Below are positions 225 to 34,689 of a DNA stretch of 37,944 nucleotides, one piece after another. How positions within the stretch are numbered: the stretch's first letter is position 1; the number at the start of each line of letters is the position of its first letter. Position numbers and translations under genes: made by a program. The notes beneath the pieces are model-generated. The model did not search any database. It was not told the DNA's origin and saw only the letters and a list, made by a program, of their open reading frames with translations. The stretch lies in the sequence record PZ247578.1; one strand, 5' to 3'. Source of the stretch: a phage.

Positions 225-253
225 TTGACTACAGGTCCAGACTATGGCTTAAT
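225..253 (+). promoter_or_regulatory. Candidate host sigma70 early promoter (TTGACT, 17-nt spacer, TG-n-CTTAAT)
   Basis: -35 TTGACT at 225..230 and an extended -10-like hexamer at 248..253; sits where T7 has the A1-A3 early promoters. The -10 is weak. Confidence 0.35.
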
Positions 254-365
254 AGCTTCCGTCAACACGACACGGCAACAACCGGATAGTGAAGACGCCG
301 GGTCATCCCGGTTAAGTAGACAGCCTGATAAGTCATACGAACAACAGGCAGATGACAGAAAGTAG

Positions 366-400
366 TTGACAAGATGTACCGACTTAAAGTAGTATGTACC
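366..400 (+). promoter_or_regulatory. Candidate host sigma70 early promoter resembling T7 A2/A3 (TTGACA ... TAGTAT GTACCACAT)
   Basis: TTGACA at 366..371, TAGTAT at 390..395 (18-nt spacer), followed by GTACCACAT as I recall downstream of the T7 A3 -10. Confidence 0.5.
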
Positions 401-510
401 ACATCAACACGAAACAACGGTGACGACCAACACTGAAATGGTCTACCTGAAGTCCTCTGACTGAAGGGAATGCTCTTTAACAATCTGGATAAACTCTTAA
501 TGTGCGCCGA

Positions 511-586
511 CAGTGATTAACTACAGGGTCTTTGAGTCTACATCTGAGGGCCCTGACTGATAGTCACTAACAACTGAGAGGATATA
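511..586 (+). repeat. Copy 1 of an approx. 75-bp duplicated leader element ending in the Shine-Dalgarno of the Ocr-like gene; candidate RNase III processing site or early regulatory leader
   Basis: Near-identical to 1331..1402 (a few mismatches); contains the self-complementary core AGGGCCCT. Confidence 0.6.
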
Positions 587-589
587 ACT

Positions 590-1087
590 ATGGAACGTAA
601 CGCTAACGCATACTATGAGCTGCTGGCTGCAACCGTTGAGGCATTTATCGAGCGTATTCAGTACGACCACCTGACTCAAGATGATGACTACAGCGATGCG
701 CTGCATGAGGTCGTAGACGGTCAGGTCCCGCACTATTACCACGAGATTTTTACGGTGATGGCTGCTGATGGTATAGACAACGAGTTCGAAGACTCTGGGA
801 TGATACCTGAAACCAAGGACGTAACGCGTATCCTACAAGCTCGCATCTATGAGGCGCTGTATAACGATGTGTCTAATAGCTTGGATGTAGTCTGGTTTGA
901 GGATGAAGAGGCAGACGAAGAGGATGAATATTGGGTAGTTGACGCTAAAACAGGCGCAATAATTGTGCAAGCTGTAGCTCTTGAGGTCGCTACTGCATGT
1001 GCCAAGGTTAACTATGCGGCAGGTCGCCACCTGAAGGTGGAAGACATCAATGATAACGTAGTGTTCGACCCTGCGGCTGAGGACTGA
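590..1087 (+). CDS. Ocr-like DNA-mimic anti-restriction protein (gp0.3 homolog) with a C-terminal extension of about 50 aa
   Basis: The stretch [45 protein letters not shown] matches recalled T7 Ocr ([45 protein letters not shown]); acidic [10 protein letters not shown] tract; SD GAGAGGA; 165 aa versus 117 aa in T7. Confidence 0.8.
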
Positions 1088-1092
1088 GAGCG

Positions 1093-1269
1093 ATGATAAC
1101 CTACGGTTTATGCCAGCACCACGTCACCATCGCCCGACTTATGGTCAAGACCGGGCAATTAAACCACGAGGAGTCTATGCGTCTCTTGAAAGTGGTCTAC
1201 AGGAGACGCAAGCGCATACACGACAGCTTACACTCTGAGGATAACCAACAATGTACAGATAACTTATAG
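1093..1269 (+). CDS. Small hypothetical early protein (58 aa), gene 0.4-position ORF
   Basis: ATG directly after the Ocr stop with a weak SD; below the ORF-track length cutoff, translated by hand. Confidence 0.3.
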   Translation: MITYGLCQHHVTIARLMVKTGQLNHEESMRLLKVVYRRRKRIHDSLHSEDNQQCTDNL

Positions 1270-1330
1270 CAGTGAACAGGCATTCTACGATGGGTGCTAC
1301 GAGCTGATGAAGCGCGATACTTGCTAGCGA

Positions 1331-1402
1331 TAGTGATTAACTACAGGGTCTTTGAGTCTACATCTGAAGGCCCTGACTGATAGTCACTAACAACTGAGAG
1401 GA
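1331..1402 (+). repeat. Copy 2 of the approx. 75-bp duplicated leader element, directly upstream of ORF 1408..1635
   Basis: Near-identical to 511..586, including the SD. Confidence 0.6.
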
Positions 1403-1407
1403 CAGAT

Positions 1408-1635
1408 ATGAACACAATCACTGGTGCCATAACCAAAGGTTTTCGAGCAATTTTCGGTGAAACGCAAGAAGTATGCACCAATCATAAATTCGTACTTTCT
1501 TGCGTAGTAGGGGACGAGTTTGACGGATTCGATAAACTGGTGGTTTGCGACCATTGTGGACAAGAGGCTATCCAACGCTCAAACGGTAAATTTGAATTAA
1601 TAGACGATAGCCTTACAGAAGGAGACGGCGAGTAA
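1408..1635 (+). CDS. Hypothetical early protein (75 aa), Cys-rich with a possible zinc-ribbon arrangement (C..C ... CDHC)
   Basis: SD GAGAGGA; preceded by the duplicated leader; four Cys positioned like a small Zn-binding module. Confidence 0.6.
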   Translation: MNTITGAITKGFRAIFGETQEVCTNHKFVLSCVVGDEFDGFDKLVVCDHCGQEAIQRSNGKFELIDDSLTEGDGE

Positions 1636-1667
1636 CCTAGATAAACAGGAGAGAACCAAATCGTAGC

Positions 1668-1695
1668 TTGACCATAACGCTGACAGGTGGATACT
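1668..1695 (+). promoter_or_regulatory. Candidate host sigma70 promoter (TTGACC, 16-nt spacer, GATACT)
   Basis: The -10 hexamer GATACT is the one I recall for T7 A1; spacing 16 nt. Confidence 0.4.
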
Positions 1696-1705
1696 GAGTG
1701 ATAGA

Positions 1706-1736
1706 CGAGAGGTCATCGACTGATAGGTGGCCTCAA
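1706..1736 (+). ncRNA. RNase III-like hairpin (GAGGUCA ... UGGCCUC), R0.5-like position
   Basis: 7-bp stem with one G-U pair and a 13-nt loop; same AGGTCA...GGCC(T) motif as the hairpins at 5483, 12305 and 34590. Confidence 0.4.
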
Positions 1737-1767
1737 AGATTACCACTTACATTAATAGGAGTTAACT

Positions 1768-2474: not shown

Positions 2475-5156
2475 ATGAGCGTCATCTCTATTGACAAACA
2501 CGACTTCTCTGATGTGTCGAACGCCATTGAGCCGTTTAACCTGCTGGCTGACCACTACGGGCAAGACCTTGCAGTCAAACAGCTTCAGCTTGAGCATGAG
2601 GCATATACAGAAGGCGAGCGACGTTTCATCAAGAACCTTGAGCGCCAGACTGAGCGCGGGGAACTGGCAGACAATCAGGTCGCCAAGCCTTTGATGCAGA
2701 CTCTGGTCCCTAAGATTGCGCAAGCCGTCAAGGAGTGGCATGAAGGTCCAGACGGGAAACTGTCAACCTCTCGTCCTAGCGTAGCGTTCACCATGTTGAG
2801 CACTGATGAGAAGGCCGTCAAGGACCGCTCTATGCGCATCTCCTGTGAGTCCGCTGCGGTTATCATACTGAAGGTCATACTCTCAAAGCTGGTAAAGCCT
2901 GAAGGGATACCGATTACACCGATGGCCTCCGCGATAGGTCGCACACTTGAGGACGAAATCCGCTTCGGTCGCATCCGTGACAAAGAGAAAGAGCACTTCA
3001 AGAAGGCGATAGCTGATAACCTGAATAAGAGGGCCGGGGCGTCATACAAGAAAGCCTACATGCAAGCGGTCGAGGCGTCCATGCTGGAGCAAGGCCAACT
3101 GGAAGATGCGTGGGGGACTTGGAGTCCTACAGAGGCTGTCCACGTTGGCATCAAGATGCTCGAGATTGTCATCCAGTCAACACAACTGGTCGAGCTTAAG
3201 CGGTACGGTGCTGGTAATGCAGCGGCTGACGTAGAGATGGTCCACCTGTCAGACTTCTGGGTCAAGAAGATGGCACAACGAGGATTCAGCCTTGCGGGTA
3301 TCGCTCCAGTCTACCAGCCTTGCGTCGTTCCACCTAAGCCGTGGACTGGTGTCGTAGGTGGTGGGTACTGGGCCAAAGGTCGCAGACCGTTACCATTGAT
3401 TCGCTTAGGGTCTAAGTCTGCGGTAGCACGTTATGAAGACGTATACATGCCTGAAGTCTATGACGCTGTGAATATCATCCAGAATACACCTTGGAAAGTG
3501 AACAAGAAGGTATTGGACGTGGTGAACACGGTCGAGAAGCTGAACAACACGCCTATTGAGGACATCCCTCAGATGGAACCGCTGAAGCCTGAGGACTATG
3601 CTGGTGAAACCGAGGAGGAACTAAAGGCATGGAAGAAGGCTGCTGCTGGTATCTATCGCCGCGAGAAGGCCAGACAGTCACGCAGATTATCACTGAGCTT
3701 TATCGTTAACCAAGCAAACAAGTTCTCTCAGTTCAAGGCCATCTGGTTCCCGTACAACATGGATTGGCGAGGTCGTGTCTACGCTGTCCCGATGTTCAAC
3801 CCTCAGGGTAACGACATGCAGAAGGGGCTCCTGACTCTGGCAGTCGGAAAGCCTATTGGTGCTGACGGTTTCAAATGGCTGAAGGTCCACGGTGCAAACT
3901 GTGCGGGTGTCGATAAAGTCACCTTCGATGAGCGCATCAAGTGGGTGGAAGACAACCACGAAAACATCATGGCTGCTGCTAAGGCACCGATGGATAGTAT
4001 TGAGTGGTGGGGCAAGTTAGACTCTCCGTTCTGCTTCCTAGCTTTCTGCTTCGAGTATGCTGGCGTAATGCACCACGGCTTGTCTTACTCCTGCTCGCTG
4101 CCGATAGCGTTCGATGGGTCCTGCTCTGGGATTCAGCACTTCAGCGCTATGCTTCGCGACCACATCGGTGGACATGCAGTAAACCTGACGCCATCCGGTA
4201 AGGTCCAAGACATCTACCGCATCGTGTCTGACCGCATTGAGGAGGAGCTTAAAGTCCTACTGGTTAACGGTACGGACAACGAGATGGTAACTCACGAGGA
4301 CAAGAAAACTGGTGAGATTACCGAGCGTCTCAAGCTGGGGACACGAGAGCTTGCCCGTCAGTGGCTGACCTACGGTATGTCACGAAAGGTCACTAAGCGT
4401 TCGGTCATGACTCTGGCCTACGGGTCGAAAGAGTACGGCTTCGCAGACCAAGTTTACGAGGACATCGTGATGCCAGCGATTGACTCAGGGTCTGGCGCTA
4501 TGTTCACTGAACCAAGCCAAGCGTCTCGCTTCATGGCAAAGATGATTTGGGAAGCTGTGAGTGTGACAGTAGTTGCTGCGGTTGACGCGATGAAGTGGCT
4601 TCAAGGTGCTGCCAAGCTGCTGGCTGCTGAGGTGAAGGACAAGAAGACTGGAGAAATCCTGAAGCCTTGCCTTCCGGTACACTGGGTCACACCTGATGGG
4701 TTCCCGGTCTGGCAGGAGTACCGCAAGAAGGATACTACTCGTCTGAACCTGATGTTCTTAGGGTCATTCAATCTTCAGCCTACCGTCAACAAAGGTACGA
4801 AGAAAGAGCTGGACAAGCACAAGCAGGAGTCAGGCATTAGCCCGAACTTCGTCCACTCACAAGATGGTAGCCACCTCCGCAAGACTGTAGTCCACACTCA
4901 CCGAAAGTATGGCGTGATGTCATTCGCAGTGATTCACGATAGCTTCGGGACCATCCCGGCTGACGCTGAGTATCTGTTCCGTGGCGTCCGTGAGACGATG
5001 GTAGAGACTTACCGCGATAACGATGTGCTGCTTGACTTCTACGAGCAGTTCGAATACCAGCTTCACGAGAGTCAGCGCGACAAGTTGCCTGAGCTTCCGA
5101 AGAAAGGTAAACTGAATATCGAGGACATCTTGTCTTCAGACTTTGCATTCGCTTAA
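2475..5156 (+). CDS. Single-subunit DNA-directed RNA polymerase (T7 gp1 homolog), 893 aa
   Basis: Catalytic motifs DGSCSGIQHFSAM and HDSFGT; length and position as in T7; ends in FAFA like T7 RNAP. Confidence 0.97.
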   Translation: MSVISIDKHDFSDVSNAIEPFNLLADHYGQDLAVKQLQLEHEAYTEGERRFIKNLERQTERGELADNQVAKPLMQTLVPKIAQAVKEWHEGPDGKLSTSRPSVAFTMLSTDEKAVKDRSMRISCESAAVIILKVILSKLVKPEGIPITPMASAIGRTLEDEIRFGRIRDKEKEHFKKAIADNLNKRAGASYKKAYMQAVEASMLEQGQLEDAWGTWSPTEAVHVGIKMLEIVIQSTQLVELKRYGAGNAAADVEMVHLSDFWVKKMAQRGFSLAGIAPVYQPCVVPPKPWTGVVGGGYWAKGRRPLPLIRLGSKSAVARYEDVYMPEVYDAVNIIQNTPWKVNKKVLDVVNTVEKLNNTPIEDIPQMEPLKPEDYAGETEEELKAWKKAAAGIYRREKARQSRRLSLSFIVNQANKFSQFKAIWFPYNMDWRGRVYAVPMFNPQGNDMQKGLLTLAVGKPIGADGFKWLKVHGANCAGVDKVTFDERIKWVEDNHENIMAAAKAPMDSIEWWGKLDSPFCFLAFCFEYAGVMHHGLSYSCSLPIAFDGSCSGIQHFSAMLRDHIGGHAVNLTPSGKVQDIYRIVSDRIEEELKVLLVNGTDNEMVTHEDKKTGEITERLKLGTRELARQWLTYGMSRKVTKRSVMTLAYGSKEYGFADQVYEDIVMPAIDSGSGAMFTEPSQASRFMAKMIWEAVSVTVVAAVDAMKWLQGAAKLLAAEVKDKKTGEILKPCLPVHWVTPDGFPVWQEYRKKDTTRLNLMFLGSFNLQPTVNKGTKKELDKHKQESGISPNFVHSQDGSHLRKTVVHTHRKYGVMSFAVIHDSFGTIPADAEYLFRGVRETMVETYRDNDVLLDFYEQFEYQLHESQRDKLPELPKKGKLNIEDILSSDFAFA

Positions 5157-5463: not shown

Positions 5464-5486
5464 TAAACTATCACTATAGGATTAGA
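5464..5486 (+). promoter_or_regulatory. Phage RNAP promoter (TAAACTATCACTATAGGATTAG), phi1.1-like
   Basis: Consensus core; immediately followed by an RNase III-like hairpin. Confidence 0.8.
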
Positions 5487-5530
5487 CTCAAGGTCATGAC
5501 TCAAAGTCGTGGCCTTCATGATTAACCCTA
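5483..5530 (+). ncRNA. RNase III-like processing hairpin (R1.1 position)
   Basis: AGACTCAAGGTCATG...GTGGCCTTCATGATTAAC; same family as 12305 and 34590. Confidence 0.55.
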
Positions 5531-5554
5531 ACTCATTCAATCAGGAGCTACACC

Positions 5555-12138: not shown

Positions 12139-12303
12139 TTGCTAAGAAAACTTAAAGCTCGCTACCATCGGTTCATGTACAAATGGTGGAGCGATGAAGC
12201 AACCTGCCTGTCGAACATTCTGGGAGACCAGCGGTTCAACTCTGAGGCATGGAAGAAAGCTAACCGGAAGTTCATGTATCACTTCTTGCGTACAGACTTC
12301 TAG
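12139..12303 (+). CDS. Small basic hypothetical protein (gene 4.3/4.5 position), start uncertain
   Basis: ORF overlaps the gene 4 stop; AAGGAGG precedes TTG 12139; the ORF-track start is GTG 12106 and an ATG lies at 12175. Confidence 0.4.
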
Positions 12304-12304
12304 G

Positions 12305-12350
12305 TCTAGACTCAAGGTCATTCACATCGAGTGGCCTTTATGATTAGACT
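12305..12350 (+). ncRNA. RNase III-like processing hairpin (R4.7 position)
   Basis: AGACTCAAGGTCATTCACATCGAGTGGCCTTTATGATTAG; same family as 5483 and 34590. Confidence 0.55.
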
Positions 12351-12357
12351 AAACGGA

Positions 12358-17274: not shown

Positions 17275-18843
17275 ATGGCTGAACGTGAAGGGTTCGCTGC
17301 TGAAGGAGCCAAAGCGGTCTATGACCGACTGAAGAACGGTAGACAGCCATATGAGACACGCGCTCAGAACTGTGCTGCTGTCACTATCCCGTCACTGTTT
17401 CCTAAGGAGTCCGACAACTCGTCTACTGAGTACACAACTCCGTGGCAAGCTGTAGGTGCTCGCTGCTTGAACAACTTAGCTGCAAAGCTGATGTTGGCAT
17501 TATTCCCTCAGTCACCGTGGATGCGACTGACAGTCTCCGAATATGAGGCCAAGACCTTGAGTCAGGACTCAGAGGCAGCTGCTCGTGTTGACGAAGGGCT
17601 GGCTATGGTCGAGCGTGTGTTGATGGCCTACATGGAGACCAACAGTTTCCGTGTACCATTGTTCGAAGCTCTGAAGCAGCTTATCGTCTCCGGTAACTGT
17701 CTGCTATACATTCCAGAGCCTGAACAGGGTACTTACAGTCCTATGCGAATGTACCGCTTAGTGTCCTACGTTGTTCAACGTGATGCTTTCGGTAATATCT
17801 TGCAGATTGTGACTCTCGACAAGGTAGCGTTTAGTGCTCTACCGGAAGACGTTAAGTCACAACTCAACGCAGACGACTATGAGCCTGACACAGAGCTGGA
17901 AGTATATACGCACATCTACCGTCAAGACGACGAGTATCTACGTTATGAGGAAGTGGAAGGCATTGAGGTAGCAGGGACCGATGGTTCCTACCCACTGACT
18001 GCATGTCCATACATCCCGGTACGAATGGTTCGACTGGATGGTGAAGACTATGGTCGTTCTTACTGCGAGGAGTATCTGGGTGACCTGAACTCGCTGGAGA
18101 CGATTACAGAAGCTATCACCAAAATGGCTAAGGTAGCCTCCAAGGTGGTTGGCCTCGTTAACCCGAACGGTATCACGCAACCTCGTCGTCTGAACAAGGC
18201 GGCTACAGGTGAGTTCGTTGCCGGTCGCGTTGAGGACATCAACTTCCTGCAACTGACTAAGGGTCAGGACTTTACGATTGCCAAGTCGGTGGCTGATGCT
18301 ATCGAGCAACGTTTAGGCTGGGCCTTCCTTCTTAATAGTGCTGTTCAGCGTAATGCCGAGCGAGTCACTGCTGAAGAGATTCGTTATGTTGCTGGCGAAC
18401 TGGAGGCGACCTTAGGTGGCGTGTACTCAGTACAATCCCAAGAGCTTCAGTTACCTATCGTCCGTGTGCTGATGAACCAACTTCAGTCTGCTGGCATGAT
18501 TCCTGACCTTCCGAAAGAAGCGGTAGAGCCTACTGTCTCCACTGGTCTGGAAGCGTTAGGTCGTGGTCAGGACTTGGAGAAGCTAACTCAGGCGGTTAAC
18601 ATGATGACTGGTCTTCAGCCGCTATCTCAGGACCCGGACATCAACTTGCCGACCCTTAAGCTACGACTCCTGAACGCTCTGGGTATCGACACCGCTGGCC
18701 TTCTGCTGACTCAGGACGAGAAGATGCAACGTATTGCTGAACAATCAGCTCAAGGAGCTGTGGTCAACGGTGCGTCTGCTGCTGGTGCTAACATGGGTGC
18801 TGCTGTAGGTCAGGGAGCTGGTGAGGACATGGCTCAAGCCTAA
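17275..18843 (+). CDS. Portal (head-to-tail connector) protein, gp8 homolog, 522 aa
   Basis: Extensive collinear similarity to recalled T7 gp8 (YETRAQNCA, PWQAVGAR, YRLVSYVVQRDAFGN, RVTAEEIRYVA). Confidence 0.95.
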   Translation: MAEREGFAAEGAKAVYDRLKNGRQPYETRAQNCAAVTIPSLFPKESDNSSTEYTTPWQAVGARCLNNLAAKLMLALFPQSPWMRLTVSEYEAKTLSQDSEAAARVDEGLAMVERVLMAYMETNSFRVPLFEALKQLIVSGNCLLYIPEPEQGTYSPMRMYRLVSYVVQRDAFGNILQIVTLDKVAFSALPEDVKSQLNADDYEPDTELEVYTHIYRQDDEYLRYEEVEGIEVAGTDGSYPLTACPYIPVRMVRLDGEDYGRSYCEEYLGDLNSLETITEAITKMAKVASKVVGLVNPNGITQPRRLNKAATGEFVAGRVEDINFLQLTKGQDFTIAKSVADAIEQRLGWAFLLNSAVQRNAERVTAEEIRYVAGELEATLGGVYSVQSQELQLPIVRVLMNQLQSAGMIPDLPKEAVEPTVSTGLEALGRGQDLEKLTQAVNMMTGLQPLSQDPDINLPTLKLRLLNALGIDTAGLLLTQDEKMQRIAEQSAQGAVVNGASAAGANMGAAVGQGAGEDMAQA

Positions 18844-34328: not shown

Positions 34329-34588
34329 CGCAGATGGACTTAGAGAAGTTCCTCTTAATGCTAGATACTGAACGTGCTCGACTCATGCTGCAAGACCTGC
34401 GGGATGACTCTAAGCGTTCTCCTCAGCTTTACAACGCCATTGAGAAGCTACTGGCTCGTCACAACTTTGTGTTAAGCAAGGTGTCTGTGGACGAGAAGAC
34501 GCTGGCTGATATGGAGGCCCTGAACGCAGAGTATGATAAGGTGCTTTCAGCGACTGAGGATAATGACACCGGGTATGGTGTTCAATAA
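34325..34588 (+). CDS. Terminase small subunit (gp18 homolog), 87 aa
   Basis: Position between holin and Rz as in T7; size matches T7 gp18 (89 aa); SD AAAGGAGG. Confidence 0.75.
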   Translation: MTQMDLEKFLLMLDTERARLMLQDLRDDSKRSPQLYNAIEKLLARHNFVLSKVSVDEKTLADMEALNAEYDKVLSATEDNDTGYGVQ

Positions 34589-34589
34589 G

Positions 34590-34640
34590 TGTTAGACTCA
34601 AGGTCATTACTATATGTAGTGGCCTTTATGGTTAACACTA
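34590..34640 (+). ncRNA. RNase III-like processing hairpin (R18.5 position)
   Basis: TTAGACTCAAGGTCATTACTATATGTAGTGGCCTTTATGGTTAAC; same family as 5483 and 12305. Confidence 0.55.
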
Positions 34641-34689
34641 ACTAGTGGAGGCGACTCTACGTGAAATCTGATAAACCTGGAGGGCAACT

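Follow-up and report, generated by a model that had tools for sequence, protein, structure and literature searches.

A duplicated hairpin and leader resembling T7 RNase III processing sites in the early region of a K1F-like phage

RNase III processing in T7 and the early region of the window

Processing of early transcripts by RNase III has been known in the T7 family of phages since the 1970s. In T7 the host polymerase produces an early precursor of about 7 kb, which is cut co-transcriptionally by RNase III into mono- and dicistronic mRNAs; growth of T7 is possible without the enzyme, and optimal translation of several mRNAs needs the processing (PMC4858673). The R1.1 site of T7 is a two-turn hairpin, and its internal loop allows only one phosphodiester, on the 3' side, to be cleaved (PMC4858673, PMC1540722). 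After a single-strand cut at such an internal loop the upstream RNA ends in a 3' hairpin, which stabilises it (PMC3867540, PMC1540722). Antideterminants have been described as a G-C or C-G pair at position 2 of the proximal box, or at position 4 beside the cut (PMC1540722). Nothing relevant was found in the literature on RNase III sites or cleavage data for K1F-like phages or their genus.

The window, as the whole stretch of phage DNA analysed here is called, comprises 37,944 nt (PZ247578.1). Its left 2.5 kb matches Kayfunavirus (K1F-like, T7 family) sequences in 422 phage records, the best match being LI10P1 (95.9% identity). The order of genes is T7-like, with left-end repeats, host-type promoters, ocr, small early genes and RNA polymerase:

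225..261, + strand: equivalent of a host (sigma-70) early promoter, upstream of the first repeat copy, by homology only (EcoDS1 'host RNAP promoter', 469-505)
366..395, + strand: host early promoter equivalent, TTGACA-18-TAGTAT (promoter scan 10/12; aligns with the EcoDS1 host promoter 609-647)
590..1087, + strand: ocr (gene 0.3), anti-restriction, first cistron of a predicted 559-1378 mRNA (Pfam PF08684, 7e-29; phrog_2568, 7.5e-53)
1093..1269, + strand: 58-aa early gene, second cistron of the same predicted mRNA (phrog_5058, 4e-24)
1408..1635, + strand: 75-aa early gene with four cysteines, sole cistron of a predicted 1379-1737 mRNA (phrog_32657, 1e-52)
2475-5156: single-subunit RNA polymerase (gene 1)

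The six early ORFs tested are all small, and ocr alone has a known function. Among the early ORFs at 590-2475 no homologue was apparent of the protein kinase encoded by T7 gene 0.7, an enzyme by which RNase III is phosphorylated and stimulated (PMC4858673). At the left end (1-105) an array of a 15-nt repeat, ACCTACAGTCCTACA, was observed in about five copies plus degenerate ones; it aligns just inside the terminal repeat of EcoDS1, and the window seems to start after, or without, a direct terminal repeat. Relative to EcoDS1 (640-810), the window lacks about 140 nt at about 396-420, among them the third host promoter annotated in EcoDS1 (764-800), and this phage appears to have two early host promoters rather than three.

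The repeat, its hairpin and the T7 sites

It had originally been predicted that a leader element of about 75 bp is duplicated in front of two early genes. A repeat search of the window found two direct copies of a 75-nt sequence, at 508-582 and 1328-1402, which are 820 nt apart and identical at 73 of 75 positions (97%). With up to three mismatches allowed, the 37.9 kb of the window contain the 57-nt hairpin core exactly two times, against 0.00 occurrences expected by chance (100 shuffles). The predicted coordinates (511..586 and 1331..1402) are slightly shifted, since the repeat begins 3 nt before them and its first copy extends to 582, not 586:

508..582, + strand: repeat copy 1, hairpin and 5'UTR through the SD GAGAGGA at 576-582 (repeat search, core count)
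512..568, + strand: type A hairpin of copy 1, by alignment the T7 R0.3 orthologue, lower stem 512-519/561-568, upper stem 524-533/546-555 (fold and T7-only model)
1328..1402, + strand: repeat copy 2, hairpin and 5'UTR through the SD at 1396-1402 (repeat search, core count)
1331..1389, + strand: type A hairpin of copy 2 (fold and T7-only model)

The copies differ only at C511/T1331 and G548/A1368. In each, the hairpin is followed by a 5'UTR of about 14 nt ending in the SD GAGAGGA, and the first 24 nt of the leader as well as the SD are common to both; past the shared GAGAGGA the sequences diverge (TATAACTATG vs CAGATATG). Each copy runs, as had been proposed, into the SD and start codon of an early gene, with 7 nt between SD and ATG for ocr (ATG 590) and 5 nt for the 75-aa ORF (ATG 1408). 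The distance to the ATG is 21 nt for copy 1 and 19 nt for copy 2. A self-complementary core, AGGGCCCT, had also been ascribed to the element. It was found in copy 1 only (547-554); because copy 2 and every relative examined have an A at that position (AAGGCCCT), AGGGCCCT is no conserved core and simply a piece of the 3' arm of the upper stem. As a functional core the palindrome, confined to copy 1 in the window, was rejected as incidental.

RNA folding, which had been put forward as a check, gave stable hairpins on the + strand for both copies (61 nt each), with -22.9 kcal/mol and z -3.5 for copy 1 and -24.5 kcal/mol and z -4.4 for copy 2. Each is an imperfect hairpin of about two turns, in which a lower stem of 8-9 bp (AGUGAUUA/UAGUCACU) is separated by an asymmetric internal loop, with 4-5 nt on each side, from an upper stem of 10-12 bp that begins CAGGGUC/GRGGCCCUG. 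The reverse complement folded no better than shuffles (z +0.3). Such strand-specific folding fits the several G-U pairs in the helix, which on the opposite strand would be A-C mismatches. The pairing partner of the variable position G548/A1368 is U in both copies, giving U-G in one and U-A in the other.

The search of related genomes that had likewise been suggested was made with a covariance model built from T7 sites only. In 20 Kayfunavirus loci it matched 59 hairpins, every one of them on the + strand, and pairing in them is kept by compensatory changes. In the alignment of 48 distinct rows fitted to the model, 94.3% of pair cells were paired, against 24-47% when the partners were slid by 1-3 columns, and compensatory changes on both sides were present in 11 of 19 pairs. 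Since this alignment had been fitted to the model, the count was repeated on a plain MAFFT alignment of the hairpin types A-D (described below), which is independent of it: 96.9% of pair cells were paired, against 26-49% when slid, and six pairs were changed on both sides. In the MAFFT alignment the upper stem was 100% paired, with compensatory changes in 5 of 10 pairs, and the lower stem was 93% paired, with changes on both sides in a single pair. RNAalifold gave the upper stem only on the MAFFT alignment; the lower stem was added by hand and verified through the pair counts. The type A family by itself showed little variation, mostly on one side of a pair. The covariation of base pairs across the types argues for selection on RNA pairing.

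The T7-only model was trained on seven sites (R0.3, R0.5, R1, R1.1, R1.3, R4.7 and R18.5), with cleavage coordinates that we take to be those of Dunn and Studier (1983). The positions taken in the same way for R0.7, R6.5 and R13 (3 of 11) had no canonical hairpin and were left out. Each of the seven training sites has the canonical GGCCUUUAU^GAU context and lies just before its namesake gene, and in the consensus of their alignment, which has 11 compensatory pairs, an internal loop separates a stem of 9 bp from one of 10 bp. When the window was scanned with filters off, the model gave six + strand hits at E <=3.5e-4, and the next hit had an E of 0.84. Copy 1 was matched at 503-572 (31.0 bits, E 1.5e-4) and copy 2 at 1323-1392 (29.5 bits, E 3.5e-4). 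These type A scores of about 30 bits are the lowest among the six because the upper stem is longer than in T7. The four additional + strand sites lie at T7-like positions:

1695..1748, + strand: type C hairpin, T7 R0.5-like, with a predicted cut A1737^G1738, preceding a 29-aa gene at 1768 (T7-only model 1688-1751, 36.9 bits, E 6e-6)
5469..5533, + strand: RNase III-type site after gene 1, T7 R1.1-like (T7-only model, 46.4 bits)
12293..12355, + strand: RNase III-type site, T7 R4.7-like (T7-only model, 48.1 bits)
34579..34643, + strand: RNase III-type site, T7 R18.5-like (T7-only model, 55.7 bits)

The T7 genome was searched in turn with a reciprocal model, for which 18 early hairpins of Kayfunaviruses were the sole input. 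Its eight best hits, all on the + strand, were R0.5, R0.3, R6.5, R1.1, R1, R18.5, R4.7 and R1.3, which supports the seven training sites and puts R6.5 at T7 18500-18576. A search of the whole window against Rfam gave no match at the gathering threshold, and positions 400-1800 had none at E <=1; Rfam apparently has no model for T7-type RNase III sites and hence no curated threshold for them.

Copy 1 with its flanks aligns with T7 817-927, where 85 of the 111 T7 nucleotides are identical. The shared blocks are the upstream TTTAACAATCTGG, the GGG/CCC and U-G at the base of the upper stem, and GCCCU(GAC)U^GAUA(G)UCACUAA(C)AACUG. Because of this alignment we regard copy 1 as the positional and sequence orthologue of T7 R0.3. 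Both are the first processing site past the host early promoters, about 30 nt before ocr, and they share extended sequence identity and the architecture of lower stem, asymmetric internal loop and upper stem. They differ in that T7 R0.3 has a 9-bp helix closed by a tetraloop and the hairpin described here a bulged 12-bp helix with a 7-nt loop. The loop-adjacent pair is A-U in T7 R0.3 and C-G here, as in T7 R1, and the 3' side of the loop reads UUAU^GAU in T7 and GACU^GAU here. The T7 sites are all unlike one another, whereas here a site is present twice at 97% identity.

Compared with T7 R1.1, both copies have the same kind of two-turn hairpin with an internal loop, and cleavage at one 3'-side phosphodiester is predicted for them. 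By alignment they also share with R1.1 an A-U pair at position 2 of the proximal box, a G-C pair at position 1 and a non-Watson-Crick position 4. In the register set by alignment with R1.1 and R0.3, position 2 is A525-U554 in copy 1 and A1345-U1374 in copy 2, and since it is A-U the binding antideterminant is missing. In this aligned register position 3 is C-G, like the genuine T7 R1 site, and position 4 is an A/A apposition in the loop, not G-C. The base pairs of the distal box appear to differ from R1.1: the positions aligned with it, in a register that comes from alignment only, are U-G and C-G here and U-G and A-U in T7 R0.3. The true counterpart of R1.1 in the window is the 46.4-bit site at 5469-5533, not the two copies.

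A pair of RNase III sites was one of the readings offered by the original prediction. It is favoured by the match of both copies to the T7-only model, by the recovery of T7 sites with the reciprocal model, by the covarying helices and by the alignment of copy 1 with R0.3. Both elements lie on the transcribed strand, with host promoter equivalents upstream and an SD and ATG just downstream. We consider it very probable that both copies serve as T7-type RNase III processing signals on an early polycistronic transcript, each fused to the 5'UTR and SD of the next cistron.

Hairpins among relatives and the origin of the second copy

Eleven relatives were compared, including K1F, PM129, LI10P1, HC12, Bia, IME177, SH3, PRF-SP4, EPr2 and EcoDS1. 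In every relative examined an RNase III-type hairpin is present 15-35 nt ahead of the start codon of each early gene group. Type A is always the first site past the host promoters; it is followed by an 81-aa gene in K1F, PM129, LI10P1 and HC12, and lies directly before ocr in the window, Bia, IME177, SH3, PRF-SP4, EPr2 and EcoDS1. Other early gene groups are preceded by the related types B, C and D (K1F, PM129, HC12, SH3, phiHAO1-1), which have the same lower stem (AGUGAU.A/UA.UCACU) and the same ACUACAGG/CCUGACUGAU core. The apical halves of their upper stems are unrelated in sequence, yet paired. The number of sites before gene 1 is three in the window and several close relatives, four in LI10P1 and HC12, and five in PM129.

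In PM129 two near-identical type B hairpins (1088-1151 and 1437-1500) and two type A hairpins were observed, each before a different early gene; the extra type A copy was recognised from BLAST and from reading of the sequence. With paired type B and type A hairpins in PM129, duplication of sites within a genome is recurrent in the genus. Concerted evolution was considered for the two copies in the window and set aside: the first site itself varies among members of the genus between GTGATT and GCGACT and between GGGTC and GGGCC, so identity alone does not show gene conversion.

The second copy lies within an inserted cassette, bordered as follows:

1251..1327, + strand: what remains of a 41-aa gene, out of frame through a 1-nt deletion (MYR*) and with its 3' end cut by the cassette; intact in phiHAO1-1 gp03
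1636..1693, + strand: right end of the cassette, with the dead SD and start of the next siphophage gene (AACAGGAGAGAACCAAATCG) and the tail of the 41-aa gene (CTTGACCATAACGCTGACAGGTGG)

A tblastn search with the frame of the remnant matched 100 phage records. The 41-aa gene is intact at the same place in phiHAO1-1 (gp03, MYQITYSSEQAFYDGCYEMMKRGAC...); in the window its ATG is at 1251, the deletion follows codon 2, and its tail survives at 1665-1693. Four of the five differences between the old frame and PM129 are synonymous. Bia and K1F do not have window 1234-1693, and their junction is 2 nt before the type C hairpin.

The 75-aa gene is at the DNA level 87-91% identical to a gene of Kagunavirus siphophages (Golestan gp47, CR01), the matched spans being 1392-1661 in the window, 1490-1760 in Golestan and 600-870 in CR01. 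In these siphophages of about 45 kb the gene is the first of a sigma-70 operon, beside a divergent gene for a cro/DicA-like repressor. The homology starts at the SD, which is included, and stops about 20 nt past the stop codon. This extent, together with the dead SD and start of the next gene retained in the window, suggests transfer from siphophage to podophage. This appears to be a recent transfer, between phage families that are unrelated and have E. coli hosts in common, and gives a clean example of a gene passing between a podophage and a siphophage that infect the same hosts. Copy 2 is common to the window and nine records; in at least 16 others, the HC12-like phages among them, the same gene stands behind a type D hairpin instead of a second type A.

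In our reading copy 2 is a paralogous copy of the first site and its leader, placed before a horizontally acquired gene and joined to it at the SD. The right end of the repeat coincides with the joint between resident leader and incoming gene, from which we infer that the duplicated unit was the hairpin with its leader down to GAGAGGA. The near-identity of the two copies is a matter of history, not design. The arrangement resembles the morons and boundary-sequence exchanges of lambdoid phages, in which a foreign accessory gene also stands between resident genes with its joints at short conserved intergenic sequences. It differs from them in that the cassette carries neither a promoter nor a terminator and is plugged in behind a copy of a resident processing site and leader.

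It is possible, though we put this forward tentatively, that the RNase III hairpin and leader of Kayfunaviruses serve in addition as a docking module that can be used again whenever a gene is captured. Early genes, whether foreign or shuffled, would become attached downstream of one copy of this module through recombination at the conserved 3' arm of the hairpin or at the SD. A newcomer would in that case gain a processed 5' end and a ribosome-binding site, and its upstream neighbour a 3'-protecting hairpin. Copy 2 with the siphophage-derived 75-aa gene would then be a case caught in the act, and the varying number of cassettes (three in the window and several relatives, four in LI10P1 and HC12, five in PM129) would be the footprint of the process.

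Predicted processing and other readings

Host RNA polymerase would start at the left-end promoters (about 225-261 and 366-395) and transcribe rightwards, each element would fold into its two-turn hairpin with an asymmetric internal loop, and host RNase III would make a single cut 3' of the loop. By register with the T7 sites the cuts are predicted at U558^G559, U1378^G1379 and A1737^G1738. The first two would release an 820-nt mRNA carrying ocr and the 58-aa gene, the last two a 359-nt mRNA with the 75-aa gene as sole cistron, and the third product would be a long mRNA extending into gene 1. Both shorter mRNAs would begin with the same 24 nt, GAUAGUCACUAACAACUGAGAGGA. The product upstream of each cut would keep a hairpin at its 3' end and be protected by it from exonucleases, the hairpin of copy 2 thereby forming the 3' end of the ocr mRNA. 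Cleavage of the copies, the precise cuts and the effects on stability and translation are predicted here from likeness to the T7 sites.

Several other readings of the repeat were weighed. The hairpins might be structured leaders that act uncut, controlling the access of ribosomes to the SD and so giving both genes the matched expression that had been proposed. Both hairpins are indeed followed by one SD and 24 leader nucleotides in common, though with different SD-to-ATG spacings (7 and 5 nt), RNase III processing in T7 influences the translation of several mRNAs (PMC4858673), and folding of copy 2 as a 91-nt segment pairs its 5' flank with the region of the SD. That flank lies outside the repeat, however, and the pairing is missing in copy 1, while the conserved, covarying part is an RNase III-type hairpin and no helix that sequesters the SD. 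When the mean unpaired probability of the SD was computed for four contexts (-200, -100, hairpin-only and processed), neither the precursor and the processed RNA nor the two copies differed consistently. We consider uncut leaders very improbable, and for the same lack of a consistent effect of processing on SD accessibility translational activation is not claimed. It is improbable, too, that copy 2 is a mere recombination scar from insertion of the 75-aa cassette, devoid of function. It does lie within the cassette that broke the 41-aa gene, and the repeat stops exactly at the SD, where the siphophage homology starts. Against this, every examined Kayfunavirus with the 75-aa gene has an RNase III-type hairpin ahead of it, which is of type A in 9 records and of type D in at least 16, the sole difference in the helix, G548/A1368, preserves the pair, and the T7-only model still recognises copy 2 as a site.

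A role at the level of DNA, as a target for recombination, replication or a nuclease, would account for the clustering of rearrangement breakpoints among relatives at, or within about 20 nt of, the hairpins, but this clustering may simply reflect the survival of intergenic joints. The structure is strand-specific through its G-U pairs, all 59 hits in the 20 loci are on the transcribed strand and the pair covariation indicates selection on RNA, which makes a DNA element highly improbable. The chance that the hairpins act on early transcription, as intrinsic terminators or as attenuators, is close to nil. They are stable, contain G+C and lie between genes; neither is followed by a U-tract, since CACUAACAACUGAGAGG comes next (CACUAACAACUG after the hairpins), a terminator scan found 0 sites in 1-2600, and transcription must pass through both to reach the essential gene 1 downstream.

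As processing signals of the T7 family the two copies are ordinary ones, not yet annotated in the genus. They are only mildly unusual, in the 97% identity of two sites in one genome and in the foreign gene behind the second. None of the six predicted sites is annotated in the records of K1F or EcoDS1, and with the predictions at 558/559, 1378/1379 and 1737/1738 and three later ones a transcript map would become available for the early region of this phage and of the genus. These results also explain why two unrelated early genes share a leader. For the engineering of K1-specific phages the hairpin and leader may offer a natural insulated slot for gene insertion.

No RNase III-type hairpin was detected upstream of the RNA polymerase gene at 2387-2470, where T7 has R1. 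A perfect phage-type promoter, AACTATCACTATAGGA, was observed at 2387-2402, directly before this gene, and EcoDS1 has an annotated 'phi' promoter there. Short repeats are present in 2400-2470, namely GACTCAAGGTCTAAGAC, which is also found at 133-149, and AAGTGAAAGAC in two copies. The core of the phage promoter, AACTATCACTATAGGR, has 11 matches in the window, all on the + strand, against 0.2 expected by chance (2387, 5466, 7152, 8233, 10358, 16022, 18843, 19830, 24513, 31789 and 36998). The promoter at 5466-5481 overlaps the RNase III-type site at 5469-5533, like phi1.1A and R1.1 in T7.
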